Part shown: positions 16,198 through 47,120 of the stretch, piece after piece | How positions within the stretch are numbered: the stretch's first letter is position 1 | How the letters are laid out: every line of letters begins with the position of its first letter | NCBI GenBank assembly: GCA_030248215.1 | Contig: JASANG010001329.1 | Coordinates: 1 to 64,000, forward strand | Source of the DNA: Enoplolaimus lenunculus | Lineage: Eukaryota | Direction: 5' to 3' | DNA: 64,000 bases | Notes under the pieces: model-generated | Told to the model about the DNA's origin: nothing | Seen by the model: the letters and a program-made list of their open reading frames with translations, nothing else | Databases searched by the model: none | Translations under genes and position numbers: made by a program

Positions 16198-19100
16198 ATG
16201 GTTAGTCTTAGTTGTGTCAGTCTACGTAGGAACCGGGATTTCAGACCCTTATTGTTAAACAGCTGCAAAAGCGGGTTACCGGTGGTTCCGAACTAGCGAC
16301 CTTCTGCGTGTCAGGCAAACGCTGTTACCACTGGGTCACGTAGCCCGCCTCGCCAATTGCTTTCTTCATCGACTATATATAAGTCGACCGTATGCTGCCG
16401 GCAAGCATACTATACAATGTGCATTGCATATATTGCATATGCACCAGGTCAAGCATGTCTCATGCTTACAAGTTGCATATGGAGACACCGAAAATTGACT
16501 ACTATTGTATTATATAAATTGGATCTGTCAGCACAGCATTACTAACGTGCTATATGTAATTTTTTGAGTAATTCGATATGTTAATAAAATAACTTTATAG
16601 GGTCGAAAAAACAAGAAAAAGTTTATTGAAAAGAAGAAAGCGGTCACGTTTAACTTAGTTCATCGCAGCCAACGTGATCCTTTATACGGAACGGATGCAG
16701 CAGGACAGCATGTCCTGGTCGAACAACAACAACAACAACCATTAGTACGTGTTTTATGTTTGCTTAAAAATTTGTTTGGAATCTTTTATAATTGTAACAA
16801 TTTCTTCGCATCTGTTCGTCGCATTGTTTGCAAATGAATTTCTGTTTATACATAGTTGAAGGACTTTTTGACTAGCAACGAGATTACATTAAACAATTTT
16901 GGGTGAGTGATAGAAACCTGACCTTAGTCAGTTGACTTATATGTGTTTCGCGAAGCTATAGCTAGAGCCTAATATAGCATTTTTCACAGGTTCCTGGACG
17001 TTAAAGCAATCGTTAACCAAGCTATCTTTGACTTAGATGATAGATACTAAACTTAAGTGAAATGTCAAATTACCAACTTAAAATGAGGCATATGTCTCTG
17101 TATCCCGACCGTTTCAACCATTCCTAATTGAGCATTCTTAATCGCAACCCAAGTATATCTGCTTACGTTAAATTACTCAACAAAGGTGAAGCCTGTTGAC
17201 CAACTTGTTCCTGATGCAGCTTGCTTTTACATACGACATGCAATAGTTGTGTTAAGAGTCATGTTGGATGTGTTTCGTTTCTAATGTATGCCTAAGTGTT
17301 TCACACAGTTAGTGTTGGTTGTGCAAATAATCTATTTTAGGTACGATACAGTTACTATTCAGAATGTAGTCGTGGGATGTTAACAAAATCACTAAGCTAA
17401 TTTTGTTCCGGTTATTTTGTCCGTGTGTTTTTGCAATACCCGGACCCGGACCCGGAATAATGTTATGAAAACCCGAACCCGGACGCGGAATTTATTGAAG
17501 CGAAAACCCGGATTTAACTCTAATGTATGTATGTATGTACGTATGTAGGTACGTATGTATATATACGTATATATCATTGTGCAGTTCAATATGTACTCAT
17601 TTAGGATTGTTACCTAGTTCAGTTCAATTTTCCGTTTTGGTTTTGTAATTAACACTCGTTATGACCGCATTAGTACAACAAATAAGTAATTTCATTCGTA
17701 TAGTATATAAACCCTGGCAATCGCCGAAAATAAACCATCGAAGGTAGCAGATATAGTGAATACCTATCTCCAGCTAGGGTTTTTTCAGGAATAATATTTC
17801 AAAAAAGAATATTAAAATGAATTTTTTGGTGGCATGTGTTTTCCGGTTCCGTTTTTGGTAATTTTTTCAAATTCCGGTTCCGGTACATTCTAATTCCGGT
17901 TGCACCCTGATATACATCAGGGTGCGACCCGATATCCGGCTCCGGCAAAAATCCACATCCGGCTCCCATTGCGGCTTGTACTTCTCCCATATTATTGTCG
18001 CCAAATCGGTAGCAAACGTTTCGAATTGTTCGATTTCAATAATAATTGTGATTAGCTTGGTGACGGTGTCATCGTTTCGACTCGCACAACGCATTGTATT
18101 TGTCAGCCGCACCGTTGAAATACACATTCCACATTCGACGTCGACAGGGGTTTTAAGGACATCGAGATTACTCGGCTGAGATCAATCAACTTGATGTGCT
18201 CAGTTTTCCTTCAGATAACATGTCAGGTGAAATAATAGATGAACCGACATGGAATGTGTTGTTTCCATCTAGAGCATTTTGAAATAATTTTATAAGAGAT
18301 TTTCAAAGGAATGACGATATAGTATGCTACACAGATGGCTCTGTCGTTCAAGGTGCAGCAAGGAAATTAGCAGGTGCTGGAATTTTCCCAGAGCACTTCA
18401 TGGTTAGCCGATCACTAGGAGAGTATGTTTCAGTTTTCCAGACAGAAATCCTTGCGATCAAAATATGCACTGAAGAGTTAACAGGAAGGAAGACTGCTGA
18501 AAAAAGAATACTCATTATTTCGGACAGTCAGGCAGCACTGAAAGCTTTACATAGTATCAAAATTAGATCTAAAATAGTTAACGAGTGTAGAATAGCAATT
18601 AAAGAACTGTCACAATTAAATGAATTTTTACTAGTGTGGGTTGGGTACCGGGTCATTCAAATGTAATCGGTAATGACTTAGCGGATGAATTAGCAAGCCG
18701 TGGATCAGGTAGACGATTTATAGGACCAGAACCGGTACTGCCTAGATGTAAGCGGGAGGTTCGCTTAAGAATTACATCGTGGATGCACAGAAAATTTATA
18801 TATAGATGGATAAATCAGAAAATCTGTAGATTTACAAGATCAATAATTCAAGAACCAAACATAAGAAGAAGTAGATTTTTATTAAAGCTTAATAAAGACA
18901 AACTTAGACAATGTATTGAGATTTTATCAGGACATTGTTGGTTAAGTTATCACTTATTTAGAATGAGAGTAGCTCAAGATAAAAATTGTTCAGAATGCAA
19001 TGTAAGTGAGACCGCTGAGCACTTTTTATGCGTCGGTAATGACTTAGCGGATGAATTAGCAAGGCGTGGATCAGGTAGACGATTTATAGGACCAGAACCG

Positions 19101-22100
19101 GTACTGCCTATATGTAAGCGGGAGGTTCGCTAAAGAATTACATCGTGGATGCACAGAAAATTTATATATAGATGGATAAATCAGAAAATCTGTAGATTTA
19201 CAAGATCAATAATTCAAGAACCAAACATAAAAAGAAGTAGATTTTTATTAAAGCTTAATAAAGAAAAACTTAGACAATGTATTCAGATTTTATCAGGACA
19301 TTGTTGGTTAAGTTATCACTTATTTAGAATGAGAGTAGCTCAAGATAAAAATTGTTCAGAATGCAATGTAAGTGAGACCGCTGAGCACTTTTTATGCGTA
19401 TGCAAGCGGTGGAAAGACAAACGCGAGCAATTTCTTGGTAGGAAGACGTTAGCTGTTAGAGAAATTAGATCTCTTGATATAAGGAAAATCTATAATTTTA
19501 TTGTTGAAACAGAACGTCTAAAGGTTAATGTAGAGTGACACACAGAGTATATAAGGTCGTATGATGTCGCTATGGACAATGTTTTGAATTTGTCTACGCG
19601 AACGCCCACAGTGGCGTCATATCCTCTTTCTACGTTATCTATCTATCTATTTATTTGTTCTAAATACGCTTTAACAATGCGTCGCAGTAGGAGCCGGTCG
19701 CGTAAATACGGAGCATTGGTTTTCAGCGGTCGGAGTAGCAGAGTCTTTGCTGTCCAGACCCTCACGGGTGTCTGCAAGAATATTTAAATCTTCGACTCCA
19801 GTTGATTGATATGGTCACGAAGCTGGTCGGCTATGCCCAGTGGTCCTGCTACAAATACGCGCCCCATAGTCCATTACAACGTGCAACATATTCCGTTGGT
19901 TTACCATAAAAGTTAAAAAGATCTTGCTTGTTGCTTCACATCGACGTTGAACTTTGGCAAGTCAACTAGATCTTGCTTCGCATCGGCAGCTAACGTTCGC
20001 AAATCGTCTTTCCGTCAACATCTACAGACATATTTTCTACGGATAACACACGAAACCGTCTTAGCTGCTTGCGATCGTTGGGTAAAAGATAAGAGGCGAA
20101 TTGTTCCATGAACGCATTTGGTGCGCCGGATTTTTGTTCGTCTGTGTCGGTGAACAGTTCGTGCAAACTTTGATCACTGGGTTGCAGAAACTCGACAAAT
20201 CGACCTTCACGAAGTGCTTTTTGTACAATAACACATCGGTCAATGGAGCCTTGATATTCGCTCAGCTATTTGCCTATCACCTCTGTTGATGTCATTAATT
20301 GGATGACGGGGATAAGAATGTATCGTTTTAAAGCAACGTTTGCTGTTGGCGTCAGTAGCGGTATGTCGAACATGTAAGACCGTCATCGCCATAGCCCTGT
20401 GAAGCGAACCTTCCTTGGCTAAGAAGTCCAGTTCGCTTTCCTATTTACGGCTCATTGACCCCCCTTGAACGTCTTGTCCACCTCTGGTGACATCGTGAAA
20501 AACGGAGCATTTTTGTGACTTCGTAGTGATCGAACAAAAATTTGGACTGTTTGCTGGTCTGTTTTGCTGCAAGCTGAATGCGGTGTGAGCCAGGATGGCA
20601 TCGAATCCACAATTTTTCCCAATTCGAATCCAGTGCTAAGTTTATCAAAACTTTATTGCTTAAAAATGAACAAAATATTGCCGAACATTGTTGGATTCGG
20701 TTTTGGATTCGGCTTTATCACAACGGAATCCAATTCCGAATCCGAACCACAAATTTTTGCCGAATCCGAATCAGAAATTGTTGCCGAATCCGAATCCTAA
20801 CCATTGTTGCCACCTGGTTTGAGCCACAACGTCAGTCAGTGGTCCTTGGTTTGTGTTCTCGAATGTGACAGTTTGCACTAATATCGGAACAATAGGACGG
20901 AGAGTTTTTGGACAGAAGTTTCATCGGGCCATTAGGCGGGGAGAAAAACGCGCAAATTGGACACAACGACTCCATGAGGACGTTGAACCATTCGATGTTT
21001 TCGGACCATTAGGCGCGGAAAAAGAAAGGGCAAAGTGCACAGAACGACTCCGTGAGGACATTGAACCATTCGATGTAATCAACGATAGGCGCCAGGATAG
21101 CATCTGTCTTTTTCGATGCCCGTGCCAATTTAAGCAAACGTTCGCAAATTTTGTCTGCTTTGTGATTCAAAACATACCGCACGCAGACAGCGAGCCACTA
21201 ACGTGTCCTCTCAGTAGACGCCAAATCGACCATAATACCGAACGTTATGTTCTCGTGGTGTTCACAACAACAAGTGATTTAAAAATAGAGACCGTACATC
21301 GACGCCAAGTGAAGGCGGTAGGTCAGCTCTTGAATCGATTGTTGTGAGGCATGTTGTCCTTTGAAATGGACCACCGGCTGCATGCCAAAAGACTGGAGCC
21401 ACCAATTTTGCGTTCCCAGTTCGTATGTGCTTTGTTGACAAAACCATCGCTCGTCCACATAACTTGCTCATGTCAACTTTTCGCTTAGTGGCAGCAACTT
21501 GGCGACACGTTTTGCAAATGATTCCAATAATCGATCCGTCTTTGTTGCCGTTCCGGTACACAAATTGGATCCACAAATACTCAAGGGCCCACTCTATTCT
21601 GACTCGCTGATTTTTCTACATATTCCCCTTAGGGACGTAGAGCACAGTTCTCGCGACAACAATATCAATTGGATCAACGACGTACAGATCCTTTGTAAGC
21701 CTGAAAGAGTAACCTGCTGCTATCAAAATATTAAAAATGCGCGACAATTTGAGGGGGGCAGCACCCTTTCCTCAATTTTTGGGCGCGGCCAACTCAGGTC
21801 GCCTTCCCCAAATTGTTGTTGTGTCAACCTATTTGGGGGGAGTTAGTTCTCAAAATGCCCTTCTCAAATTTTGACCCCAGGTAGAGGCCAAGGCCAGTAT
21901 ATATAATATGTACCAGTCGTAGTGGGACTACATTTATTGAGCGAAGCTCAAACACACGTAAGCAATTAAGGTAATACTCAAATTAGTTATTAGCTAACTA
22001 TTCATTTATCGGTTTTGGAGGTTTGTAAGCAATTTGCTTACCAATTATGCTTATATATGCAAATTTTCTATTAGCTAACTATTCGATAATCGGTTTTAAA

Positions 22101-25100
22101 GGTTTGTAAACAATTTATTCAGATTCCTCGCACCCAAAAAACTTCAGTAAACCCTAATAATTATTGAAATAATTTAAAAAGTCCTAATTTTGTCGTCAAT
22201 TAAGCTAATATGCAAATTAGTAGGGTTCCAACGAAATTCCGATTCCGGCTAAAATTCCGAAAAAATTTGGGTTCCGACTCTGATTCTGACTGGCTTCTAT
22301 TCCAATGCCAGAATTCCGATTTTTCGGTTATGAGTTTTTAAACTGATTGAACTTAAATTTTGCCTATTTTTTCGTTTGTTTGCAAATCTGTTTGTTTTTG
22401 TTAGTAAGCATTCTCAGTAGCAGAGTAAATTATTTCGCTGACTGTCAAAATGTGACTGCAATTCAAAACTATAAGCTCTACCTTTAAACGAATAACAAAG
22501 TCTAAACTTAAAATTCTACTTCATAGCGGCAAGCAGTGATGTTAGCCCCACTATGTTCTCAAATATAGTTAGATATTTGGTTCAACAGTATCCTTACTGT
22601 AGTGCAAACGACGCTCCATTGAATTGCAGAATTTTTAAAAATCTGGGTCCTGCTATTTCTGATTTCATAAGACTGCATATTTAAGTTTTGAAATGCTCAA
22701 AATGCTTAACTGCATTTAAACTTAAGGCCACGTTGTTCCTGTGCTTTGAGAATTGACAGGCTGCTCTTAGAATTGGCAGGCCTCCATTAATATCATAATT
22801 TTACAGGTTAGTAGATCGCTAATACAGTCAGCTAACAAAAAGTCAAAAATAATAGACTTTAGTTTTTGATATAATTACTAAAACTTAAATTCCGATTCCG
22901 ATTCTGGTTCCGACAAAAAAATTTGATTCCGATTCCACTTCCGACAAAATTTACTTCCGGTTATTCCTCGCACCCAAAAACCCTTCAATGCTAAAATTAG
23001 ATTGCTTCTAACTGTAATAATTAGTGAAATAATGTAGAAAGTCCTAATTTAGGCTTAATTAATTATGCAAATTAGCCTGTAGCTAATAAACGACTTACGG
23101 CCGGAATTCCTGCAAGAATTCAATTCCTGTTCCTGCATTTAAAGATGTAGGAACCGGATTTTTCGGTTTTGTGGCAAATTATGCCTAGTCATTTAAACAT
23201 TGGAAACTTTGTCTTTAAAAAATTGTAATTTCGACATGAGTGTTTTTCCAAAAACTTCAATTTTTAATAAACTGTTTCTGTTGTGTTTTTACAAAACTTG
23301 ATTGTAAGATAGCTCAAAGTTTGCTTAATCCGTTTTTGGTGAAGTTTTCTGAAAAGTCCAACAGTAATTCGGTGATGAAAATTATTTCAAATTCCGGTTC
23401 CTGTTCCGGTTCCTGCAAAAAACGCAATTCCTGTTCTTGTTCCTGTTCCGGCAAAATTTAGTTCCTGTTGAAACCCTGCTAGATTGCATTCAAATATCAG
23501 AACGTATCTTATAATTATTCCTTCTGTGGCTGAAGGCACGCAAAGTGTTTACGTGGCAAAGTTTAACATCTCACGCCGATGCATTTCTAACACTTTAACA
23601 ACGTCCGTATTATACTATTCTATGTTTATGTATCGTTGCGGTTAGTTGCAATATTTGTTTGGCCCGTGTTCTTTTTAGAGGCATCCAGTTTCTCGGAGGT
23701 ACTATATAACAAAAGTGGCTAAGATCAAGGATGGGAGTCTCGGTCTCAGCCTCGCTAAGGCCCGGCATTTGGCAGGTCTCGTTTTCTTGAGTCTCGGTGG
23801 TTTGGAACCGACACTAGAAGTCGAGGATTCAGCAAATGCTGGTGAACCTTTAAAAAGCAGAACTTAATATTGTCGAAGCAAGTAAGGCCTGATGAATAAA
23901 ATTTCGCTATGAATCTGTGAATTTTCATACTTATGCAATAATTATTAGCATGTCTTCTGAAAACACAAAAAACTAAAAAACGCAAAAAACTGCGGAAAAA
24001 TATAAGAAATAGTTTGTTTTGAAATTTTTATTTCTTTCGGTGATGACTAAAAGTTGACTGAGACCGAGACTTTTCATGGCAAGGCTCCGCTCATCCCTCG
24101 CTCTGATTAAGGCTATTATTTTCATTTAGGCGTAAGCTTAGTTATAGGCACATTTTTACGCTGAAGTTTAGGCTTAGCGTTAAAAATAATAGAAATATGC
24201 TGAGATATAGTTTGGTACACCCATTCTTAACACTCGTCACCTGTATCTGGTTTTTTAGCGTTATTGTAACCCAATAACAATTGTGAACATACACGGTCAC
24301 ATGCAAACATTTACTGTACATGTGTGATAGAAAAAATATGTAAAAGTAAGTCAAACAGTTTGATGGTACTTGGCATGAATACGAACCGGTGGAAATTCTG
24401 TCAAGTTTTTAAAAATAATATCCGGCAAGTTAAAATACCAGAGCCGGAGCCGGGCATTAGGTTTTTTGCCGGAGCCGGGTATTAGATTTTTTGCCGCAGC
24501 CGGAGCCGGATATCCGGTCGTACCCTGATATATATTGGGCGTCTGTGATCAACTTTCATTTTGTTTCGGTGATATTTTACCGCTTTTTATTTTTTGGTAA
24601 CAATTTCGACTGTTTCCCCCCTTAGCTACGTCTTTGACTTTACTCTTCTTTTTCAGAAAAATTCGGATAACAATTCTCGGGAGGAACAGATTAAATACGG
24701 AATATTTTTTGATGATGACTACGACTATTTGCAACATTTAAGAGATGTGAACGAAGTAAGTGCGGATGTAATGTTTATTACGTGATTTACTTTAAACAAT
24801 ATTTACTGGACTATGTACGTATATATTACCCCGCAGAAATCTTAAATTTGTTCAGCATTAACGTGTAGATTCTGAGTATATTGGAACGACAAATATTATT
24901 TAGAATTGGAATGGAATTGCTATGCAATGAGGGATCGAGATAAGTAATAATGTTAAAGTAATAATAGGCATGCTTCGTATTTTGTTTGATAAAAGCTTCG
25001 ATGAAAAGTATTGACAATATATTTTTGTTTAGGTAGCATCACTGGAGCCTGTCGAGGAGCGCTTTAGAATCAGTACCGATGGAAAAATCGTACCGTTGGA

Positions 25101-28100
25101 TATTCCAGTAGGTGAAAATGCATTTTTCTGTTGACATCAATGCTATTACTTAAAAGTTTTTTCTGTGGGAATTGACACGTTCCAAACCTTTACAACTCAC
25201 AAGGCTTAGCGAGCATGTTTTAGTTCATGTCAGGTTCTTGTGTTATCTTAGTTCACGCCTGTAAGCGTTGGTGGAAAATTGGTGTTCAAGTTTGTGGAGG
25301 AATAGTTTGTTACGTTGTGACTGTGTCCTAAAATTAGTTTTCGTTATACAGCACAAGGCTTAAAATATAATTTTTTATGATTTTTAAGATTCAACCCCTA
25401 AATAGTAGTGCTTAGGCTTACGCTTAGGTTACAATTTTGTTACAAAATTAAAATGTTCAAATTACTGAAAATCAACCTGCAACGATACACTCCCTTATAT
25501 AATATCATGTGTACACTGTTGAAGCAAACGTTAAATAAACAACATTGGAACAATGTCAGATATAGTTTGTTACGTACAACTGGCCAAGATTTTTCGCAGC
25601 AGTAAAAATTTAGTATGTCCGGAAAATTTTCCTCGCCTTCTGTAGAAATGTGCCAGCTGCCTCTGCTAAGAATTCCTAGTGGCAGGACTGTAAATATTAT
25701 GCGGATGTTCATAGTGCAAATCGAGAAATACGGCGCCTCTGGTTAAACTCGTATAAATCTGGATAGTAATTATAAATAACGATTGTGTTTTTGAGTTTAG
25801 ACTTCATCCAACATTAATTTATCATCATCTGTGTTCGAGTCTTGTGTAGAACGCGAAACTGGTGTTTTGGAACGGGCTATAACCGATACTGGTATTTTTA
25901 TTATTTTGACATATCTTTTTTGATTTGTTCATTTGTATTTACACTTTTTGTCTTTTTTGCTATTGTGTTTGTATATATTCTGTACTGATGTAAGCTTTTT
26001 GTGCGTATCGATAAGCGTCATGATTTATCAAATGTCAGTGTGCCTAGTTGATTGCTTACAGCTGAATTTCAATTTTAGGCTTACATTTGGATTGGGATCC
26101 AGACGTTATGGCAGCTCTGGATGACGATTTTGATTATGAAGCTCCGGGCAATGAGCTTGAAGATGATTTTGTGGAACTTGCGAAAGGCGATAAAGACGCC
26201 AGTAACGATTCTGTGATGCAACCAGAAACTAACGAATCGAGTGAACAAACTATGCAAAGGTTAGTAAGTGGCGCAGTATTGGCATGATCTTAAGTTGAAA
26301 ATTTTGGTTACTATTACAGTTAAAAGTAAAACTCCTAAGTCAGGAAATTACAGTTCTAACATTTATGTGTGTAACTGCAGGGATCGACTGAATATCCGCT
26401 ATATCCGGTTAACATCCAGTTAAGGTGAAAAAATTACTATCCGGCTCACAAGATTCCGGTATTTAACAAAATTAATGTCCGGTAGAGTTTAACACATACC
26501 TTTGAGCTTTATGTTCGTACATTATGCCGAATTCTGATAATTGCACCTAGCTGCTTACAAATCATTGCTAATTTCGTTTTATCGCGTCAAATTGTAAGAA
26601 AGGTGATGTTACACCCTTTAAAATTAAATTGAAATATTGATATCAAAGTGATTGCCAAGTTCTAATTTGAAATTTGGACTTAATTTCGATCAAATGTCAC
26701 ATTATTGTACAAGAAATAAGACCAACTTATCTCTTGTTGCAGTTATCTGGGCTCTGTTTTTACCACTGATAATCAAGGAATTGTTAATCAAGCAGCTGTT
26801 ATTTTTATTTCAAGGTTTTTGAAAAGTATGCATCTTAGCGAAGAAAATTCAACAGAGATATCGCAGTTTGTTGCAAGCGATAGCTCATCAAATGAAAACA
26901 CCAATAGAACTATGCCAGCGCAAGTTAATGATAGTCAGGTATCTCGTTCTGATTCCGACTCATCGTGTTCTGAAGAAGGCAACATATCTACAGAGGGCCC
27001 CGAGATGGGAGTTATGTTGCCGGAGGTAAACGAATTAGAACACGATGGCTTTGAAACAAAATCACGGTTCACCGAGTATTCGCTAACCTCATCGGTAATG
27101 CATCGAACTATGGGACTTCAAATGGTCGACCAAATATTTGAAAAGGTTGGTTGTTTATGATAACTGAAACATTCTATTTCATTTAGGATTGATTTTCTAG
27201 TTTAAGTAACATATTAGCTTAATTGGTTAAGCCTAGATTAGGGCTTTTTAAATTGTTTCACTGATTATTAGGGTTACAAGTGATTTGATTTCAGCACTAA
27301 AGGGTTTTTGAGCGCAAAACTAACTACTAACTAATTTAGATATTAGCCATGCCAGCTATAGCAGATAGGTTGGGGAATATATCATTTTTATAAGTGTTTG
27401 TGCTGGGCATGAGACATTTAAATAGCATTTTGCAGTTGGAACACTTTCGAATTATTTAGCTACTCAACAATTAGTATGTAGTTGTGTAAGTTGTGACAAT
27501 AAGGCTAGTCTCTTATACCAACGGGTTTACTATACAATGAAGTGTTGCGGATCATAGTGTGCTAAGTTTTCGAAGAACTTAACTTTCCAAGTAAATGTGG
27601 TGTAGTGCTTATTTTCACTTAAAACGTGTGAACATGCGTTATAAGCTTGCAAGTTCAACTGGGCAAGTAGAAAAAGGTAAATTGTTCTTTATAAGCTTGG
27701 CTGTTTAACTAGACTGATTAAAAAAGTAAGTATGTTTAAACTGCACTCAATATAATATGTAGTTTTTTTCAACTACGAGTGTTTAATTTTATTTTCAGGT
27801 TTAGTCGGGTGTTTGACTATAACGGGCTAAAAACTGCAGATTTTTACGATACGTAACAACACGTTACGTCAGTTTAGACAACATCATGTACCAGCCAGAT
27901 CTAATGATTTTGTACATTTTGTTAGCTTTGGCCATTTTTTGCGGTGATTGGCAGTTTTATCCACTTGGACCCAAGTGTCACCTAGAGTTTTAGTTAAATA
28001 CGGACGCCAACCGTCATAGTTAACAGACATTAGGTGCAAACCTTCTGCTTTAATTGTATATAAGCCTAGAATAATGCAATTTGATAGGCGTATTGTATTT

Positions 28101-30310
28101 TTGATTATTGCAGTTCTATGAACAATATGACGATGAAGAAATTGGCGAGTTGGACGATGACTTTTTGCCAGAACCTATTCAAGGTCATGAGGATCCAAAT
28201 TCTAACCGGATTGCAAGTCTTTGTGAGCAATTTAAAAACGTCGAATCAATCTCGAGGTAAAAACCAAAATTTCTCAGCCGTTCATTAGCTAGAGCCTAAT
28301 TTGAATCAAAGGTTTTTGGGTACGTGGAATCTGAATTTAACGTTTATAGGTCTTCAAAACAAGTAAGTGTATAGCATATTTTAAGGTTACAAGTGAGTTG
28401 ATTTTAGTACTAAAGCGTTTTTTGGTGCGAATAATTTGAACAAATTGTTATAAATACAAATAAAACAGATAAATAATTAGGTAGCTACTAACTAACTTCA
28501 AATTTCGCACTCCATGAGCTCGAGACTTACCGGACAGCGATTCCACAGATCAATGGCGAAGCTTCCTGGGTTGACACGCAATTTCTGTTTTCAAAATCAT
28601 CTGTTGTGTTTGCGCAAAATCATCTGCGCTAACGTTCGGTGTCTGCTAGATGTTACTTTCTAAGCTTTCTATTGCCTAACGCAATCATGAAGCACCCCAC
28701 CCTTGTTTTATTATGTTGTGTTTGCTGTCTTTAGTTTTGACATTCTTGATAACTCTTAGATTATTATACATTCTAACCCTGTAGTTTGCATTGGTCTTTT
28801 TGTTTTCTATAGGTTTGCAGTACCCGAGCCTCAAGCGGATCAAGCGGAGCTATCTAAACAACTCAGTGAGCGCCAAGTGGAAGAAATGTGTCAAGTCATG
28901 GTCGACGAAGAAAACGCAGGGAAACAAGATAAATGGGATTGCGAATCAGTTTTGTGTAAGGTCGAATTGGGTAGCAAAGTACACTGGGTCGGGCTACTCG
29001 GTATTTCTAATTATTCGTGATAGTTTTATATTTTTAATGTATCCCATGGTTGCGTGCAAGCATTTCAACATTTTTTGCGGTAGAAAGATAAATTTAGTAC
29101 TGTGTTGACACGACTGTACTGGAGTTTTTTCGGTGAATTAAAACCAAGGTCACTTTATGTACTATGTCAGATCGATGATTGTAGAGTCCCCCTCATTTAT
29201 ACTTGGCATAAAAAGGCTTACCTGTGCCTGAGGGTATTGTGGAGAAAAGTGTGCAATAGCTGTAAAATGCAGTAATAACAGGCGCAACCGCGATTACTAA
29301 GTACTTGATTCTGACCGTGACTGTATGACTTTCATTGTTTGTATTTCAGCAACATACTCCAATATGTATAATCATCCAACCCTAATCAAAGAAGCGCCCA
29401 CCGGAAACGGTAAACGTCGAAAAAGTCTAAATCAAGCTCCTGCTCTTCAAGTCAATCCTAAAACTGGTTTGCCAGTTGGGGTGCTGAGGTCTAAAACTTT
29501 GCCAGTGGAACAGCTGAACTTAGAAAGTGAAGTCCCACCCTCAGGTTTTGATCAGCGCACAATGGCAACTGGTATTTCTGGAAAAAGTCAAGCATCAACG
29601 TTTAGGCCGAAAAACGAATCGCTGGGAGACAAGAAAGTTCGGAAAAATGCAGTGAAGGAAGAGAGAAAGGTAAGCTATTACGTTTGTGTTGTTTTTAAGG
29701 GGTGAAATTAACAAACATTGAAGCGTTTTGGTAATGTGAGAATAGTACCGTTTTTTGAAATTTAAGCATTGCAATAGCCGATCCTAGCGATTAAATGACC
29801 GAATAAATTTTAAATTTTGATTTCGGGGTATGCGTGTTAGCAATGTCTATCGACTTAGTACAGCACTAAAATTTGCTATTTCACGTCTTTTCGACATTGT
29901 GCTCATATACAAGTTAACGTAGAATATGTATTTCGATTATTTTTGGAAACCCAACTTCGGGCTGTGTTGAAAATCTTTGTGAACTTAGTGGAGGTATTAT
30001 GTGTTGTAGCAGAGGTGCCATTGCGATATGCATCTTGACTGTTTTATTTCACACACATTACAAATTATTTATTAGTACCAAATTTCGAATGAACTAACAA
30101 TTCGGGCAAAACGGTGATGTGATGTAAACCCTGATGTTCCCTATTTTCTTGAAAGTGATCGGTAATTATAATTGCGTAGAACAATTTCTTTTTCAGCAGC
30201 GGAGAATCGAAAAGAAAGCTAACAAGATAGCATTTAAAGAAGAGTCAATGAGACTAACTGCGGAACGTTTAAATGTTGCCTCGAACTTGTCTGGTGTTAA
30301 ACTTTTATGA
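16198..30310 (+). CDS. LTV1: Protein LTV1 homolog (40S biogenesis factor); coding exons 16198-16200, 16601-16744, 24657-24755, 25033-25107, 25801-25891, 26079-26259, 26815-27145, 28114-28256, 28813-28955, 29350-29669, 30197-30310
   Basis: Motifs in order: KKKFIEKKKAVTFNLVHRSQRDPL, YGIFFDDDYDYLQHLRD, DWDPDVMAALDDDFDY..NELEDDFV, ETKSRFTEYSLTSSVM, YDDEEIGELD, KWDCESVLSTYSNMYNHP, KKVRKNAVKEERKQRRIEKKANK.AFKEE. All junctions GT-AG with matching phases; AATAAA near 30524. Confidence 0.96.
16273..16346 (-). pseudogene. Degenerate tRNA-Val-like sequence (anticodon GAC) or SINE head in LTV1 intron 1
   Basis: Minus strand GGGCTACGTGACCCAGTGGTAACAGCGTTTGC-CTGACAC-GCAGAAGGTCGCTAGTTCGGAACCACCGGTAACCC followed by GCTTTT. 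Anticodon stem pairs; D and T stems are defective. Confidence 0.65.
18212..19655 (+). mobile_element. 5'-truncated non-LTR retrotransposon fragment (RNase H plus C-terminal zinc motif; I/R1/LOA group) with an internal 366-bp tandem duplication
   Basis: YTDGS, SVFQTEILAI, IISDSQAAL, WVPGH..GNDLADELA (RNase H); LSGHC..HL...CSEC..ETAEHFLC.C; frameshift near 18640; (ATCT)n tail at about 19637-19650. Confidence 0.88.
20591..20816. mobile_element. hAT-type MITE with (GAATCC)n subterminal repeats inserted into the transposase; relative at 38992-39362
   Basis: CAGGATGGCATC ... GTTGCCACCTG; TSD GTGTGAGC/GTTTGAGC. Confidence 0.7.
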
Positions 30311-30555: not shown

Positions 30556-30726
30556 GGTCCATGTATACAACAGGGCCGGAACAGTAGTATAAGCATATTC
30601 CTAAGCCTAAATCTAAGCGTATGGATGAGCCTATTCCTAAGCCTAAGCAAAAAATAGTCTAAAGCTTAAACTGACTCTATTATAGCACCTCCGGAAAACG
30701 ATACGGTCCTGTTCTATACATGGGTC
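30556..30726. mobile_element. Same telomeric-repeat MITE family, just upstream of the LINE
   Basis: GGTCCATGTATACAACAGGGCCGGAAC ... CGGTCCTGTTCTATACATGGGTC; CCTAAG repeats; degenerate TSD. Confidence 0.75.
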
Positions 30727-30811
30727 TTAGTATTGATAATATGTTTTGTTTTTCATTGGTTTGAGAATATTATCAATATCAGGGCATTAATATTTACTTT
30801 TATATTAAATA

Positions 30812-32584
30812 ATGCCTACAACCAGTGATCACGATGTCATTGGTATTGCTGGAGGCGGCAGTATTTTGTCGGAGGAGACTTCCACCTTAACTGATCAACC
30901 ACAAACCCCAATGGACACGGCAGCAATTGATCACAATCAGGATTACGACGTCGAGGGTAATAATGATGCAAATGAATTAAAAGGGGACTATGCGAACTTA
31001 TTACGGTCTAGAACACTCTATGTAACTAATCTTAAATATCATGGTCTTAATAACTTAACGTGCGTAGAAGTGCTGAACGCTGTTAATAAGGTTTTCACTG
31101 TCCAGGGTGGTGAGAAGTTTAGTAATAGTGTTAAAATTATTTTCCCATCCAAGGACATTGCATCTATAGCAGCGGGTAAATCAATTAAAATTGGGGACTC
31201 GGAGGTAATTCTAGAAATTCCTCGCGACGCAACATTGCAATCTCCTTTTATTGTTCGAACTTTACATCTATATGGCGTCCCCTTTGAAGTTCCGGATAAA
31301 GCGCTACAGTCGTTCTTAGCTGCTCAAAATATTCAGTGCTTGCAACCTGGTCGTTTCATCAAGCATCGAGGAAGTGAATACATCTCAAGTGGTCGAAGTT
31401 TCTTAGTCCAGATCCGCCGCGACTATAAAATACCTCCTCGGCTCCAATGGTGCGATCCTCATTTTAGGCGCGGATATATTATAATTCGGGCATGGTACCC
31501 GGGTATGGGTCGGTATTGCAAATCATGTTATAAATTTGGACATGAACAATTAGATTGTGTTGATTTTCCTGCTTTGAACAACACTGAAGTGGACACGAAC
31601 TCAGCTAAACAACAACAAGAAGAGCAAGAACCCAAACAACAGTCACAACAACAGCAGCAACAGAAACAACAAATACAACAACAACAATTACAACAACAAC
31701 GGCAACAAATGAAAGCCGGGATAGACAAGGATCGCAGCAAGTTAAATACAAACAAGCAGTTTCTTGATATCAGTAACTTTATTATGGGGTTAATCAAAAA
31801 TATTCAGTCCAGCATTAACAATGATATTATTGTGAGAGAACCATTAGCTTTAGTCATCAATGGAAAGCTGGATTTGACTAAACTGCCAGAATCCGGGAAA
31901 TCTTTTCTCAATTTTTCTGCTTGGTATAGATATTTGCATTTGAAACGATCGATGTCTCCGCCATTTCACCCTGAGGGTGAAGACGTTAAAACATTTTTTG
32001 ATTCGAAACATCCAAGCAATTATCGTCTCTCGAATTTCCATGTTGACAATCCAGTATCTGTTTGGGGCGAGTCTTTCTCATCTCCTGAAAAATTTGTCGC
32101 AGTGTGGAAGGCGAGATTCAGTGGTCGCAAAGATATCGAAGAGAAGGTTTGGGGAACAGACGATCCTAAATCAATAAAATTTTTACATAGTCAGATAGTT
32201 TGGCCGGGCACAACGTTACATTATTTGTGTATCGTTTTCGAATTAATTTATACGATTTGTTTTGCACGAGCACAACAATGTGATGTGATTGGGCGCACAC
32301 TATTGTCAACAGAGGGTCTATTGGTTGAGACTGTACCTGGGCCGGGGCCTTGGAGCTGCGGCCGTGGACACTCTGATAATCGAGCTCAAAATAGAGTTAC
32401 CTGGCGTCCTGGCAGTTTAAACTTAAATGGTGACTGTCAGACTCTTGTGCGAGAACACATTATGTTACGAAAGGTGAGAACAGTAAGCACATCGTCTGAT
32501 ATATCTTCTCGCGTTACAGGTGTTAAGCGGTTGTATGAAGAGTCAGATGTGATTAGTGGCAAAAAGCCAAACATTGCAATGTGA
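30812..32584 (+). CDS. LINE ORF1: RRM-like region, CCHC zinc knuckle, poly-Q tract and C-terminal NADAR/YbiA-like domain
   Basis: TLYVTNL and TLHLYGVPFEVPDKAL (Tx1/L1 ORF1 RRM-type); CKSCYKFGHEQLDC knuckle; Q-rich run; then FF...LSNFH...G..FSSPE...KA...LLST..LLVE...W..G...N.NG...VRE. Confidence 0.85.
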   Translation: MPTTSDHDVIGIAGGGSILSEETSTLTDQPQTPMDTAAIDHNQDYDVEGNNDANELKGDYANLLRSRTLYVTNLKYHGLNNLTCVEVLNAVNKVFTVQGGEKFSNSVKIIFPSKDIASIAAGKSIKIGDSEVILEIPRDATLQSPFIVRTLHLYGVPFEVPDKALQSFLAAQNIQCLQPGRFIKHRGSEYISSGRSFLVQIRRDYKIPPRLQWCDPHFRRGYIIIRAWYPGMGRYCKSCYKFGHEQLDCVDFPALNNTEVDTNSAKQQQEEQEPKQQSQQQQQQKQQIQQQQLQQQRQQMKAGIDKDRSKLNTNKQFLDISNFIMGLIKNIQSSINNDIIVREPLALVINGKLDLTKLPESGKSFLNFSAWYRYLHLKRSMSPPFHPEGEDVKTFFDSKHPSNYRLSNFHVDNPVSVWGESFSSPEKFVAVWKARFSGRKDIEEKVWGTDDPKSIKFLHSQIVWPGTTLHYLCIVFELIYTICFARAQQCDVIGRTLLSTEGLLVETVPGPGPWSCGRGHSDNRAQNRVTWRPGSLNLNGDCQTLVREHIMLRKVRTVSTSSDISSRVTGVKRLYEESDVISGKKPNIAM

Positions 32585-32638
32585 ACGTGCATTTTTTTTT
32601 GTTTTACATGCCTTAAATTGATATGAAAGAGAGTCAAT

Positions 32639-35600
32639 ATGGATCTGCCAAATTTCTTTTCTTTTTCCAGTTTAAATTGCAGATCCATTAAGCATTTTCG
32701 AAAAGTGTCGATAGTTTTTGAAAGGATAAAAGATTTGGATTTGATTTGTCTGCAAGAGACACATTTTAAAAACAATTGGGATGCAGAGATTTTTGATAGA
32801 ATTTTTTCACGCAATTTTAAAATATTTCACAGTTTCGCAAGCGAGGAGAATAGTAAAACAGGGGTAACGGTCCTTATAAATAGGACAGCTCCTGTTGGTC
32901 AAATTGAAAACATTTTTAATATTCAGGGTAGGGCGGTCACGATTGCTTTTAGTATTGGCTCTCTTTCTTTTTTCTTAATTGGTATTTATGCTCCCGCGAA
33001 CGGCGAGCAGCGAGTAGTTTTTTTCAACCAGCTGATGCAACAAGTGCAAAATTCGTTTTGGTTTGATTATAAATGTGTTATTATGTTGGGTGATTTTAAC
33101 TTAGTTGAGGACCCGGTTTTGGACCGATCACGGCCGTCATATGATCAGCAGCAAGGCCTGAGAGAGCTTTATTGTTTGAAGGAACTGTTGGTGATATCTG
33201 ATGTTTTTAGGGAGACACATCCAAATAAAAACGACTTTTTTACTTTTCTTTCAGACATTCATGGAAGTCAGTCTCGTATAGATCGGATTTATATGCCGGC
33301 TTTTTTACAACCGGGCGCTTTGTGTACCGCTCGCGCAGTGAACAAGACAGATCATAGGTTGTTTAGAGTTAAGATTCGCTTACCTAATTTAAAGAGAGGT
33401 AAAGGATACTATAAGATGAATACAATGCTTTTGGGTGAAGTCGGCGTACAGACCTTTGTTTTAACGCGGCTCAACCATTTAATGAACATTTCCACAGGGT
33501 TTTCTATGATGTGGGAAGTATTTAAGGCTGATGTTAAAACCTTCTTTGTAAAGTTGGGTAAAAATAAAGCTAAGGAACGCGACATGTTGAGGAAATCATT
33601 AGAGAGCCAAGTTATTAATGTACAAATGCTGATAGGACAGTATCCAAACAATCCGAATCTCAGATCGGGTCTTAAAAAGCTAAAAAATGAAATCGAATTA
33701 TTGAATGCATTTTATATTGCTTCTTGCAGGCATAATACGTACTACGGTAGTGAGGTAAATGACAACGCCTCTTTAGCAACAGTCAAGTCTCTTCAACGTA
33801 AGAGCTGGGAAGCCAGGCATATAAGCTCGATCGAAAGGTCTGATGGCACGTTAGTAACAGACTCAGATGCAGTTCTAGGTGAAATTACTGAGCAGTATTC
33901 CAACGTATTCAGATCGGAAGGGATAAGCGGAGAAGATCTCACTTTTTTTCTGGCACAAAATGGTCTTTCCAAGTTGAGTGAGGTGGAAAAAAATACTTTA
34001 GAGGGACCCATTACGTCAGTTGAAATAGCGAGCGCTATTAAATCTATGCAGGGTAAAAAGACGCCGGGATACGATGGTATTCCTGTTGAATTCTATTGGC
34101 TGTTTTGTGGAATATTATCTGAATTTTTGTGTAAAATGTATAACGCGTTCTTGGATGATTTTAAGCTCAATTTCTCCGCATATGATGGTGTTATTACCCT
34201 ATTATATAAAGGGAATGGAAGGAAAACGTGTCGCGATAATTGGCGGCCAATTACGTTGCTGAATATAGATTATAAGATTTTTACGAAAGTTTTGGCAAAA
34301 AGATTAGAATCGGTCATGAAATCTTTAGTCCACCCGGATCAGACAAGCTCGGTTCCCGACAGAATTATCCAAGACAGTGTTGCACATGTCATGTCTGTTA
34401 TTCATTATGCCAATGAAAGCAACGCAAAGGCGTTGCTGCTATCAGTTGATCACAAAGCCGCTTTTGATTTGGTGGAGTGGTCATTTATTTTTGAGACACT
34501 TAGGGTCATGAATTTTGGCGAAAACTTTTTAAACATGATCAAATGTATTTATAAACCCGGATGTACAAGATCATCTGTTATAGTTAATGGTTTTAAGTCA
34601 GAATTTTTTCATGTTTTCCGTGGAATTCGACAAGGGTGTCCCTTATCGCCGTCATTATATGTCATAACAGCGGAAGTGGTAGCTCATTATCTTCGAATAA
34701 CTTCAAGAATTTCGGGGATACCACTATACGGCATTAACACCCGAGTGACTAAGTTTGCCGACGACACTAATATTTTTCTAAGTAGGATTTCAGATATAAG
34801 TGTGGTTTTTGATGTTTTTGAAAAACTTCAAAAGGCCTCTGGCAGCCGACTAAAGGAAACTAAAACACAGATACTATTAATGGGCGATCTAAGGAACGCA
34901 CTTGTACCCCATCAATATGCACGCTTTATTGTTGAAAGAGTGAAAATTTATGGCCTTTGGTTTGATTCAAAGGGACTCGATGTTCCTGAAAATTGGATAA
35001 AGTGCTATGAAGCAATTGCAAGTCTTGAACAGCGAATACCGCCCCGAGGTATCTCTGTTTTTGGAAAAATCCATCTTGTTCACATTTATTTTTTGTGTAT
35101 GTTTAATTATTTGATAAAATTAGTAACACCCCCTGAGCAACTAGTGAAGGAAACTATCAATGTGGTTTATAAGTGGTTGTGGTACCCGTCCACCGCTAGT
35201 ATTATTAGAAGGGATATCCTGTTTTTACAACCTAGTCACGGCGGGATAAATTTCCCAAATATTTTTGTCAGACTGAAAGTTAATCGTTTAATGTTTTATA
35301 TTCGAATATTAAGAGGTACCGAAGTTGTGAGTTGGAAGAGATGTTTCGAACATTTCTTTCGGCAAGTTCAGTTTTCGACTAAACGTCAACTGAGACGCAT
35401 TGATGTACCGGAGTTATATAAAGAGATACGGATTGCAATGATTGAGTCATCTTTTAAAATGGATGGAAATTTTTGTTGGTTTTTTGGCGAAAAGTTATCC
35501 TTAAAAACAGTGTCGGCAAATAAATTGTATAAAATGTGGATACACGCTGTGTATAAGGGACTCATGCATCCTAAACATGTTTTTTGGCGAGACGAGCTAG

Positions 35601-36175
35601 GAGTTGAACCTATTTTTGTCGAGCGATCATGGATATGGGCAAAAGCGAAATATGTTGACGGCTCTGCGCGAGACGTCCATTTTAGGTTAAGACACAAGTC
35701 ATTGTATACTAATCACCGCACTAGTCATTTTACAGATGGGACAAATATATGTTCGTTTTGTTATTTGGATGGAATTGAAGTGCGGGAGGATAATGTTCAT
35801 GTGTTTATTTATTGTTTGCGGGCGCAAGAAATTAGTTTTTTCATTACTCCCGTTTTGCAACAGGTAGCTGGAGTAAATGAAATAACGATTTCGGATTTAA
35901 TTTTGGGACGAAATATTCACGACCCATTAAAGAGAATAGCTTTTAATTTCATCGTCCAACATGCACAATTGGCAATATGGAGTGCTCGATGTAAACTCGA
36001 GTTTAACAATGAAAATGTCTGTGTTGTTGATGTTTTTCAGGAAAATGTTTATAGAAATTTGTGCAAACTTAAGCTGTATCTAAAAGAAGAATGTTTTTTT
36101 AAGGTTTTTGGAACAATAACCCGACAGAATGATAGCATGCTGGGTTTTCGAATGTCTTTTTCTCAGCGTACCTGA
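32639..36175 (+). CDS. LINE ORF2: APE endonuclease, reverse transcriptase and C-terminal cysteine-rich motif
   Basis: SLNCRS, ICLQETH, GIYAP, MLGDFN, SRIDRIY, TDH (APE); KTPGYDGIPVEFY, NWRPITLLNIDYKIF, DHKAAFD, GIRQGCPLSP, FADD (RT); CSFC..EDNVHVFIYC. Confidence 0.97.
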   Translation: MDLPNFFSFSSLNCRSIKHFRKVSIVFERIKDLDLICLQETHFKNNWDAEIFDRIFSRNFKIFHSFASEENSKTGVTVLINRTAPVGQIENIFNIQGRAVTIAFSIGSLSFFLIGIYAPANGEQRVVFFNQLMQQVQNSFWFDYKCVIMLGDFNLVEDPVLDRSRPSYDQQQGLRELYCLKELLVISDVFRETHPNKNDFFTFLSDIHGSQSRIDRIYMPAFLQPGALCTARAVNKTDHRLFRVKIRLPNLKRGKGYYKMNTMLLGEVGVQTFVLTRLNHLMNISTGFSMMWEVFKADVKTFFVKLGKNKAKERDMLRKSLESQVINVQMLIGQYPNNPNLRSGLKKLKNEIELLNAFYIASCRHNTYYGSEVNDNASLATVKSLQRKSWEARHISSIERSDGTLVTDSDAVLGEITEQYSNVFRSEGISGEDLTFFLAQNGLSKLSEVEKNTLEGPITSVEIASAIKSMQGKKTPGYDGIPVEFYWLFCGILSEFLCKMYNAFLDDFKLNFSAYDGVITLLYKGNGRKTCRDNWRPITLLNIDYKIFTKVLAKRLESVMKSLVHPDQTSSVPDRIIQDSVAHVMSVIHYANESNAKALLLSVDHKAAFDLVEWSFIFETLRVMNFGENFLNMIKCIYKPGCTRSSVIVNGFKSEFFHVFRGIRQGCPLSPSLYVITAEVVAHYLRITSRISGIPLYGINTRVTKFADDTNIFLSRISDISVVFDVFEKLQKASGSRLKETKTQILLMGDLRNALVPHQYARFIVERVKIYGLWFDSKGLDVPENWIKCYEAIASLEQRIPPRGISVFGKIHLVHIYFLCMFNYLIKLVTPPEQLVKETINVVYKWLWYPSTASIIRRDILFLQPSHGGINFPNIFVRLKVNRLMFYIRILRGTEVVSWKRCFEHFFRQVQFSTKRQLRRIDVPELYKEIRIAMIESSFKMDGNFCWFFGEKLSLKTVSANKLYKMWIHAVYKGLMHPKHVFWRDELGVEPIFVERSWIWAKAKYVDGSARDVHFRLRHKSLYTNHRTSHFTDGTNICSFCYLDGIEVREDNVHVFIYCLRAQEISFFITPVLQQVAGVNEITISDLILGRNIHDPLKRIAFNFIVQHAQLAIWSARCKLEFNNENVCVVDVFQENVYRNLCKLKLYLKEECFFKVFGTITRQNDSMLGFRMSFSQRT

Positions 36176-37622
36176 TTTGTAGTTTGTTTTGAAACTAGGT
36201 TTCTTGTGTGCTTTTTAACATATTTGCTCTGAATAATATCCTTGCAAGCAGAGTAGAATAATGGGTAATTTTCAAGGACCTTTGTTATGTTATGATAATA
36301 TGTTGTTGCCTTCTTTGGTTTATATAATTGCTTTCGTTGATGTAAATGTGGTTTATCCTTTTAATAAAACCCGGGGTGTTCGGCAAACGAGCGCTTCGGA
36401 CTTAAACTTAAACTTTATTAAAATTGTTTTCATTATATGTGAGTGCTTAACAAATTTCAAGCCAACTTTTGGCCTAAAAAAAAATAGGGGGGGACGGTTT
36501 CCACTGGATTAGAAAAAAAAAAAAGACACGCCCTTACAAAAATTATATGGAGGCTTCTTCTGGGCTTCCCCCCCCCCCTGTGGGGGGGAGTACTCTTTAT
36601 ACTACCGCTTGCGGGCGGGACCACAAAAACCACAGAGATTTTCCCTCCTTTTCCGGCGACACACGCCGCCGAGGCCGCGGCGGTTATCGCCCCACCATCA
36701 CTACCAACTAAACCACACACACCCACCCACACACACCACTGGGTGGGGAGATTCTAGAAACCAAACAAGGGAGAGCACAACACAGAACAAGCCGCGCGCG
36801 TCCGCTGTCACACATAAAAACTATTAAGATCACGCACCGCCACCGCGACGAGGCGGCAGCAAAGCAACACCAAAACAACAAAACACCACCACCACCCCAC
36901 CCCCCCCTCCCCCCCTTCTCCCCGCACCAAAACTGAAATTGTAGGGAGCGCAAGAAAGGAGATAAAAAAAAAAAAAAAACAAACACACCACCCAAAACAA
37001 AACACACCGCGCACAACGCGGAGAAAAAAAAAAAACCAAAAAAAGAGCGCGCAACCCGGGCAACACCCCACGAAAAGCAGCGGAAGCCACAGTAGCCCAG
37101 GTGACGGCGACTAAAAACTCGCATAAACGCGAGAGGAATCGAACTTGCGTATGCATAAATCCAACTCAGCGCGATTAGCAAACGCGTGGGACAACGTTGA
37201 ACGCTAGCTTGAAAGCACGGCCGACTACTGGTCAGAGCGTAACGATTCCAGCCTAATGCAACGACTGCTAAATGCATTTGATATGCAATAGCAACATTTG
37301 CAATACCAATAACTTGGCAGTCAAGCTGGCGGTATGTAAGCACAGTTCGTTCTGTTGTTGGGGATTTTGACCTGGAAAAATTGGAATAAATGTCTAAGCG
37401 CAGGCAGGGGTGTAGAAGAGAGTAACAGAGTGGGACTTAATATTGAACATATACACGGGTCGGGTAAAAAATTTCAGTCGCGGGTTTACCCGTACGTTTG
37501 CATTATGCGGGTAAAACTGACAATTTTTATCCACGCCAAACTTCTAAGTGTTAAGGTGCAAAACATACAAAAAACTGCGGCAATGGCCCATTAACGAAAA
37601 ATTTTCAGTTTACTATCCATAA

Positions 37623-45251: not shown

Positions 45252-47120
45252 CAGGGTGCAATCGAAATTCGGGTTCCGGTTAGGGCATTTTTAACCTTCC
45301 GGTTCCGTTAAATTTTTACCAATTTGGTCGGTGGAAATTAAGATATTTTACTAAAAATGACGATAAAAATGAAATAGATTTTATTAGTATAGTATGCAAA
45401 GCTTGACAATCGCTCACTAAAAATATACTTAAAATTAAGTAAATCTGTTGCCGAATTTAGTGTCGGTTTTAGTTACTATGGTGCTTGGCAAAGTTTTACT
45501 TACTTTTAAGCAAACACAATTTTCAGCTTTATATTTACTTAATTAATTAGGAAATGACAGCAGTAGTTAGACTTATTTACATTTTTACCAAACATTTACT
45601 GAATATTTAATAAACTTATACTTAAAAAAAGTTGGACAATGTTACTCTGAGGGGCGTCCCGTTTTCCGCGGGACAGCAACAGACCAGCACTCTTGCCCAT
45701 ATATTTGTGCTGGGACTGAGGGACACCTTTGAGCCTATGTTTTTGTAGGGTCGGGCGGGATAGCCAAGACAGCTTCGAGCGTGTGTTCTTGTTGGGTTGG
45801 TCGAGACAGCTTCGAGCCTATTTTCTTCTGGGTCGGCCGGGTCAGTCGGGCCAGCTTCGAGCCTATGTTTTTGCTGGGTGGGGCGGGACAACCGGGACAG
45901 CTTCGAGCGTGTGTTTTCGTTGGGTCGGTCCGGATAGCCGGGACAGCTTCGAGCGTGTGTTTTCGTTGGGTCGGTCGGGACAGCCGGGACAGCTTCGAGC
46001 CTATGGTTTTTGGTGGGGCGTGCGAGACAGCCGGGACAGATTCGGGCGTGTGTTTTCGTTGGGTCGGTCGGGACAGCCGGGACAGATTCGACCCTATGTT
46101 TTTGCTGGGTCGGACGGGACAGCCGGGACAGCTTCGAGCCTATGGTTTTTGCTGGGGCGGGCGGGACAGCCGGGACAGATTCGGGCGTGTGTTTTCGTTG
46201 GATCGGTCGGGACAGCCGGGACAGCTTCGAACATCGGCTTTTGCTGGTTTGGTCGCGACAGCCGAGACAGCTTCGAACCTATGTTTTTGCTGGATCGGGC
46301 GGGACAGCCGGGAAGGCTTCGACTGCTTTGTATTTTTTCAGGATGAGTAAATTGGTCATCCGTGGTCGGAATGCGCTATTTCTGGTATTACAATGTTTAA
46401 GGCTAACCTGTTTGAAAATGTATTTGAAACACAATAACAGTGTTTAATACAATTTCAACGTAATGTAAATTGTCTAGTGTGTGGGAGGTTCTAAGGGCAA
46501 AATCCTTTCGAGAACACAATAAAAGACAACTTCCCGAGATAAAACCATTCATCCAAAGCTACAAAGACAAAGTCAAAAAATTTTGTTCCAACAAGGAATT
46601 GCTTTGCATGAGGGTTTGGGGGTCGACAGCCCCTTGAAAACGCAATAAAAGAAAATCTTTTTGTGTCAGTGTTCTATACATGGGCCCGATCCATGCTGTT
46701 CTGGCTGTCCCGACCGATCCAACAAAAACATTGGTTTGAAGCTGTCCCGACCGACCCAGAACAAACAGGTTTGTAGCTGTCCCGACCAACCCAGCAAAAA
46801 CATTTTACTCCGGGTATATTGCTGTTCCGTGGGTAAATGGGACGCCCCTCAGAGTAACATGGGCCAAAAGTTAGTAAAATATAACTATAGTATTTAAAGT
46901 AGAGTGCCAAAAATAAGATGCGTGGATTATGAAAATTTAAAATACAGCAGGTAAAGTGAATACTTATCTGCAACTAGGGTTATTTCACCAATAATATTGC
47001 AAAAAAGAAAATTAAAATGAATTTTTCGGTGGCATGTATATATTTTTCATTTTCCGGTTCCGTTTATGGTAATTTTTTGAAATGCCGGTTCCGACAAATT
47101 GTAATTCCGTTTGCACCCTG
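45252..47120. mobile_element. CAGGG-type hAT MITE hosting nested insertions
   Basis: CAGGGTGCAATCGAAATT ... AATTCCGTTTGCACCCTG; flanks GGTAAAATC/GGTAAATC; internal sequence similar to 13117-13481. Confidence 0.7.
45634..46865. mobile_element. 1.2-kb non-autonomous Merlin-like element with internal ~40-bp tandem repeats
   Basis: TIR GGACAATGTTACTCTGAGGGGCGTCCC / GGGACGCCCCTCAGAGTAACATGGGCC; TSD-like (A)AAAAGTT on both sides; repeats GGGTCGGTCGGGACAGCCGGGACAGCTTCGAGC.. at 45720-46325 and inverted at 46700-46800. Confidence 0.8.

Follow-up and report, generated by a model that had tools for sequence, protein, structure and literature searches.

The C-terminal domain of the ORF1 protein in an L1/Tx1-type retrotransposon of Enoplolaimus lenunculus is a NADAR domain of the YbiA type, fused to a LINE ORF1. 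From comparison with its relatives, the domain is conserved and probably enzymatic, with base-linked ADP-ribose as the likeliest predicted substrate. The element lies in a window of 64,000 nucleotides (assembly GCA_030248215.1, contig JASANG010001329.1, positions 1-64,000, forward strand), to which all coordinates below refer. It is intact, as the first-pass annotation of this DNA had claimed, with ORF1 and ORF2 both unbroken from start to stop, and it is likely a young, recently inserted element.

Layout and extent of the element

The following features compose the element:

30780..36413, + strand: L1/Tx1-type non-LTR element, likely extent 5634 bp (putative empty-site contig, run X1)
30812..32584, + strand: ORF1, 590 aa, RRM-RRM-CCHC-polyQ/helix-NADAR (open from start to stop; Pfam; model)
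30974..31228, + strand: first RRM, predicted, ORF1 aa 55-139 (VIA match of the AlphaFold model)
31241..31498, + strand: second RRM-like fold, predicted, about aa 144-229 (secondary structure of the model, pLDDT >90)
31517..31558, + strand: CCHC zinc knuckle, aa 236-249 (pattern match)
31608..31708, + strand: poly-Q tract, where a long predicted helix (aa 279-333) begins (sequence and model)
31994..32461, + strand: NADAR (YbiA-type) domain, ORF1 aa 395-550 (Pfam, TIGR02464, PDB profile, ESM Atlas, Foldseek, VIA)
32639..36175, + strand: ORF2, 1178 aa, with APE endonuclease, reverse transcriptase and a C-terminal Cys/His motif (open from start to stop)
32714..33301, + strand: APE-type endonuclease PF03372, ORF2 aa 26-221 (E 3.1e-6, above gathering score)
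34232..34930, + strand: reverse transcriptase PF00078, ORF2 aa 532-764 (E 3.5e-32)
35750..35815, + strand: C-x2-C...H-x4-C motif, ORF2 C-terminus (read from the sequence)
36363..36413, + strand: 3' end of the element, AATAAA at 36363 and a two-copy hexamer tail to 36413 (sequence and joint)

An ORF1 followed by an ORF2 with APE endonuclease, reverse transcriptase and C-terminal Cys/His motif is the layout of the L1 clade, and the latter motif is common to the relatives P0001, P0002 and P0004. ORF1 also falls within the definition of Type I ORF1p (at least one RRM and a CCHC knuckle), its RRMs being predicted. The RRM-like region, CCHC knuckle and poly-Q tract that had been proposed upstream of the NADAR domain could all be located, the first of these as two RRM folds in the model. 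The first RRM (aa 55-139) has no Pfam match; by VIA, its model resembles the RRMs of FIR (Z 10.2, rmsd 2.8, 81 aligned) and TUT1 (Z 10.2, rmsd 1.7, 76 aligned). Tandem-RRM matches in Foldseek and VIA (UP1, nucleolin) cover model residues 4-175.

The extent of the element is derived from a contig of run X1 in which position 30779 is joined to 36414 with eight other letters between them. Its shorter side is 54 letters long and its depth (9.55) is flank-like. This joint, read from one contig, is likely an empty site, and on that reading the element measures 5634 bp with a 5' leader of 32 nt and a short hexamer tail. A poly-A run is absent from the 3' end (36363-36413). No target-site duplication longer than 8 nt was found; the best candidate, of 8 nt, lies away from the joint and is taken as chance. 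Many Tx1 elements insert at specific target sequences. At the one insertion site known here, the search for an RNA gene in Rfam gives two weak matches of chance level, far below gathering scores. A second copy of the element was not found in the window.

Three public sequencing runs (X1, X2 and X3, from one study and at most two samples) yield contigs that cover the element almost without differences. Over ORF1, the depth of the contigs exceeds that of a flank contig by a factor of about 35-100 (268-444 versus 7.3 in X1, 2485-3526 versus 43 in X2 and about 1200-1300 versus 13 in X3), and depth is still greater at the 3' end of the element. Such a profile agrees with a young multi-copy family subject to 5' truncation, depth being no copy number. 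Between this copy and the near-identical contigs of the runs there are 10 differences, of which 4 are synonymous and 6 are not, too few for dN/dS. Loose ends occur in X1 at positions 33806, 35566 and 36261, with sequences that we take to resemble a cDNA template-switch adapter. Transcripts may therefore contribute to the depth, and the run, guessed to be DNA, may be or contain cDNA. There is no RNA run among the sequencing runs listed.

The surroundings hold further features. An intron-rich LTV1 gene (ribosome biogenesis) lies on the + strand at about 24573-30310, with three exon frames matching Pfam LTV; its last exon apparently ends at 30310, and the element starts some 470 bp past the LTV1 stop. 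Just before the element lies a MITE-like repeat of 165 bp (30559-30723) with terminal inverted repeats of 20 nt and internal CCTAAG repeats, which shows very high run depth and is related to six or more other stretches of the window. Downstream, a homopolymer-rich stretch (36500-37060) has almost no cover in X1-X3 and is possibly poor sequence or gap fill. A related reverse transcriptase is present in broken pieces on the - strand at 9944-10331. The other long open frames of the window are explained by a 46 nt minisatellite of 11 copies (45720-46322) and a 366 nt tandem duplication (18667-19399).

Identity of the NADAR domain

The residues quoted in the first-pass annotation for a NADAR domain at aa 395-550 are present, and the Pfam profile PF08719 aligns there from position 2 to 162 out of 163, with an E-value of 5.1e-6 for the whole ORF1 and 8.3e-7 for the domain alone. 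The HMMER check proposed at the time thus returns the match over the whole profile, but at 27-30 bits, below the gathering score of 35.1. TIGR02464 behaves similarly (E 2.9e-6, far under the cut-off of 73.7). Searching the PDB with a single sequence (phmmer) returned no NADAR and only chance matches to a solute carrier, while a profile of four sequences retrieved the Phytophthora nicotianae NADAR 8BAU (E 2e-21) and E. coli YbiA 2B3W (E 1e-14). In the ESM Atlas, a feature search places NADAR clusters at 0.92, with 193 of 256 features in common.

An AlphaFold model of aa 55-557, built on an alignment of 88 rows, has a mean pLDDT of 87.5; single-sequence prediction gave a pLDDT of 35 and was unusable. 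As had been anticipated, YbiA and 8BAU are the top two matches of the model, both in Foldseek and in VIA. For aa 390-556, VIA gives a Z of 15.8 to 8BAU (rmsd 2.4, 162 aligned) and of 13.7 to 2B3W (rmsd 2.6, 150 aligned), both higher than any other row. This fold match is partly guided, because 28 of the 88 rows are free NADARs; the NADAR profile matches are independent of that alignment. The modeled part matches the YbiA fold, a helical core with two small sheets. The Ser, Glu (E43) and Lys (K50) that line the substrate channel in the NADAR superfamily are present as S407, E426 and K433, and the mark of the YbiA family, a Glu rather than Asp or His in the last strand, is present as E506.

Conserved and replaced active-site residues

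Residue numbers follow the Phytophthora NADAR (PMC11543638) and were transferred through the 8BAU alignment. The ORF1 domain keeps E43 (E426), K50 (K433), K75 (K456), E125 (E506) and W133 (W514) in addition to the Ser of the SNF motif. Five positions are changed, with H459 in place of G78, S460 of R79, Y471 of W89, V475 of R93 and P511 of D130. The description of the domain as a NADAR "motif for motif" was therefore too generous, as the Asp before WG is Pro511 and the Gly78/Arg79 pair is His459/Ser460. Among the residues that contact the pyrophosphate in 8BAU (K50, R79, W89, R93, W133 and D130), K50 and W133 alone are kept. With several of these contacts gone, a plain eraser or reader of ADP-ribose, as first put forward, is not supported.

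These positions were compared across 33 relatives with the same fusion. E43 is found in all 33, E125 in 32 out of 32 covered and W133 in 31 out of 31 covered, while K75 is a Lys in 28 of 33 and position 50 is K in 18, R in 12 and M or L in the remaining three. Position 79 is R in one, K in five and E in 16 of the 33; position 93 is A or S in 31 of 33. D130 persists in 20 of the 31 relatives in which it is covered and is lost in the subgroup nearest the element and in the metagenome locus L001. As a comparison, 115 free bacterial and phage NADARs were chosen from 160 loci. The fetch patterns fixed E43, D130 and W133, with E125 added for the genome scan, which makes the counts at these positions circular; R79 and R93 lie outside them. 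R79 is an Arg in 112 of the 115 free NADARs, while position 93 is mixed (C in 32, K in 31, R in 29 and A in 15). Across the relatives the NADAR is conserved to the same degree as the RRM part (mean identity 24% versus 22%), and the linker is mostly unalignable. With E43 and E125 invariant and several phosphate contacts replaced, the ribose-cleaving side is therefore conserved and the pyrophosphate side rebuilt. Phosphate-binding R79 is lost across the fused family, and the subgroup that holds this element is fast-evolving.

The part played by these residues is known from other NADARs. R79 covers the pyrophosphate in 8BAU (PMC11543638). The equivalents of K50 and E125 are required for activity in the NADARs tested (PMC11543638; PMC12945103), and K50R is active in vitro (PMC11543638). 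The E43 equivalent mainly places the ribose, the effect of E88A in vitro being minor (PMC11543638). Decay of this particular copy was considered as a source of the odd residues and rejected: the deep run contigs do not differ from this copy over the domain, and since no difference falls inside the NADAR part, the odd residues are a feature of the family and not of this copy.

Distribution of the fusion

A full HMMER search with ORF1 yields 78 representatives, 33 of which combine the N-terminal part, the knuckle and the NADAR domain (domain presence: E <1e-3 within the set). The fusion, for which the first-pass annotation had asked whether this copy stands alone, thus extends well beyond it. 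The CCHC knuckle sits between N-terminal part and NADAR in all 33 fused relatives, and Pfam NADAR matches each of them, in 30 cases above the gathering score, including the nearest relatives P0085 and P0087. They share at most about 50% identity with one another and 18-39% with the NADAR domain studied here. As the sequences come without genomic context, their status as LINE ORF1s is inferred from the layout. An earlier word-based homologue search with aa 385-555 found none among 117 candidates and was too insensitive, as judged from the later HMMER search; pattern scans of genome and viral contigs found no relative either.

Genomic context is available for 79 metagenome loci with a related ORF2. 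At these, 69 upstream frames out of 118 non-ORF2 frames were scanned, and three bear a NADAR (L001, L009 and L018). L001, where the NADAR-bearing ORF1 lies beside a related ORF2, falls inside the reverse transcriptase clade of this element (SH-aLRT 99), whereas L009 and L018 are placed among elements with a coiled-coil-type ORF1. A single clade for the NADAR-bearing sets is rejected (AU p 0.0005; 27 reverse transcriptases chosen from 97), in a test whose grouping was named after the first tree had been seen and on a tree without ORF1 data for P0001-P0003. These three are the closest ORF2 relatives, with 47-50% identity. P0078 and P0079 are apparently two further coiled-coil ORF1s with NADAR. 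In reverse transcriptase trees without a named Tx1 reference, the element stands among those with a CCHC-type ORF1, the deep forks not being resolved. The NADAR-ORF1 fusion is thus old, and a second LINE lineage with a different ORF1 type bears the domain as well. Either LINEs have therefore acquired the domain on two or more occasions, or it was exchanged between lineages; the deep part of the NADAR tree has too little support to decide.

Other domain fusions were encountered along the way. The ORF1 at L007:37-1341, of the coiled-coil group, has an IMPACT/UPF0029 domain at its end (PF01205, with an E-value of 2e-7 that passes the gathering score), a further case of an enzyme-like accessory domain in a LINE ORF1. 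NADAR domains also occur inside RPB2-like RNA polymerase proteins and together with a phosphatase-like domain (P0080, P0083, P0084, P0081 and P0130), and in one protein of 4240 aa with six stretches that match.

Predicted function

LINE ORF1 proteins coat their own transcript through RRMs and knuckle. Such coating would set many NADAR copies along the element RNA, where the domain may take base-linked ADP-ribose, placed by a host or symbiont transferase, off the RNA or the new cDNA and so let reverse transcription proceed. In our main reading, to which we give a probability of roughly 0.4, the NADAR is an active N-glycosidase on the element RNP, predicted to erase base-linked ADP-ribose and to keep the template copyable. 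The changed pocket would fit this role if the substrate were held in cis by the RRMs, which would lessen the need to grip the ADP part.

Guanine ADP-ribosylation is reversed by every NADAR family tested, and cytidine ADP-ribose, RNA included, is a further substrate of YbiA-type enzymes and of a sponge enzyme (PMC12945103). NADARs recur in nidovirus polyproteins (PMC11848433). Their occurrence in two LINE lineages, a brown algal Gypsy Pol and nidoviruses suggests a use connected with RNA-based replicons, and the equivalents of E43, K50 and E125 kept across the relatives count in favor of an active N-glycosidase. Against an eraser of ADP-ribose count the replacement of R79, R93, D130 and W89, the M or L at position 50 in three of 33 relatives and the sub-gathering Pfam score. 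Endogenous ADP-ribosylation of G or C in eukaryotes has not been shown, as PMC12945103 discusses. A broader version, in which invertebrate LINEs repeatedly captured NADARs as a counter to a host system that marks G or C in the RNA or cDNA of retroelements, and the RRM-CCHC lineage refitted its phosphate pocket, across the family, to a eukaryotic mark unlike bacterial ADP-ribose, would be unlikely on our estimate.

The pocket could also belong to an active N-glycosidase whose substrate has no ADP part, such as a ribosyl or phosphoribosyl adduct, an RNA end or a small metabolite, which we regard as possible yet rather doubtful. The invariant E43/E125 side next to a pyrophosphate/adenosine side that is remodeled family-wide, with the charge reversal from R79 to E in 16 of 33, would suit such a substrate; E. 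coli YbiA cuts riboflavin intermediates (PMC11125620), and processing of RNA intermediates has been proposed (PMC12477816). However, the phosphate-holding K50 (K or R), K75 and W133 are kept, and no such substrate is known in the LINE cycle.

Somewhat less probable still is a non-catalytic module that binds RNA, ADP-ribose or a host protein and aids RNP assembly or trafficking. The fast evolution of the subgroup and its loss of D130, G78, R79 and W89 are in line with mere binding, for which SNA-3, a NADAR protein in nematode trans-splicing, provides a precedent (PMC11125620). Yet the two glutamates of the buried site, Lys50 and Trp133 are kept at about 20-40% identity, and a pure scaffold has no need of them.

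The first-pass annotation had further suggested an interface with PARP-dependent repair during target-primed reverse transcription. That the NADAR tunes such repair at the integration site now looks improbable. According to the review PMC11140550, human L1 integration sites recruit PARP2, which aids integration, and a preprint that PMC12945103 cites states that PARP1 can modify cytidine in vitro. Precisely because PARP2 aids L1, erasing its mark would bring the element no obvious gain. Moreover, the NADARs tested cut base-linked ADP-ribose on G or C, and among the Table 1 entries considered, it is PARG, TARG1, macrodomains and ARH3, not NADARs, that are listed for the phosphate-end and adenine marks made by PARPs (PMC12945103). 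Finally, that a single family picked up the domain as a neutral passenger is very improbable and largely refuted, since 33 clusters with less than 50% mutual identity keep the NADAR with the same active-site residues, even if most LINEs lack it, as the three out of 69 upstream ORFs from the 79 related loci illustrate.

Relation to known systems and significance

The fusion of NADAR and LINE ORF1 had been presented as new among LINE accessory domains, but it is already in print for oyster elements: several Crassostrea gigas Tx1 LINE families in Repbase carry a YbiA-family NADAR in ORF1 (PMC12477816, Genome Biol 2025). These are likewise L1/Tx1-type elements with the domain inside ORF1; the passages on them hold no active-site analysis, and the comparison with the oyster families is by description only. 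The same source reports a NADAR in the Pol of one Ectocarpus Gypsy lineage. This lineage IV shares with the present element that the NADAR is borne by a retrotransposon, but it is an LTR element with the domain at the N-terminus of Pol and close to bacterial NADARs (PMC12477816). Among the matches listed, in a search with subscription journals and Repbase outside its scope, there is no further paper on a NADAR in a retrotransposon; bioRxiv 2026.07.01.735732 was rejected, as the match was to the name of a university.

The Type I ORF1p of L1/Tx1 elements (PMC5203782) has RRM folds and a CCHC knuckle upstream of an APE-RT ORF2, as here, and the present element adds a C-terminal NADAR to that layout; the word NADAR does not occur in the main text of that survey. 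The free-standing 8BAU and YbiA share the fold and E43, K50, K75, E125 and W133 with the ORF1 domain at 17-19% identity, yet have the G78-R79 pair, D130 and an R or K at position 93, all of which the ORF1 domain lacks. The antitoxins of DarT1-NADAR (DarTG1) systems belong to the same superfamily and share the type of reaction, but their last strand has an Asp and they are coupled with a DarT toxin, whereas the ORF1 domain has a Glu and the element encodes no linked transferase.

Base-linked ADP-ribosylation is a system of bacterial defense. What this analysis adds to the printed record on NADAR-bearing LINEs is the complete arrangement of domains, the range over which the family extends and the observation that the catalytic residues are kept beside a rebuilt phosphate pocket. 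A NADAR that is kept over deep divergence on the protein coating LINE RNA, and that is found in two LINE lineages, Gypsy elements and RNA viruses, would indicate an as yet undescribed pressure on retroelement RNA. The intact and likely young element of E. lenunculus offers a direct test system for base-linked ADP-ribosylation in eukaryotes.
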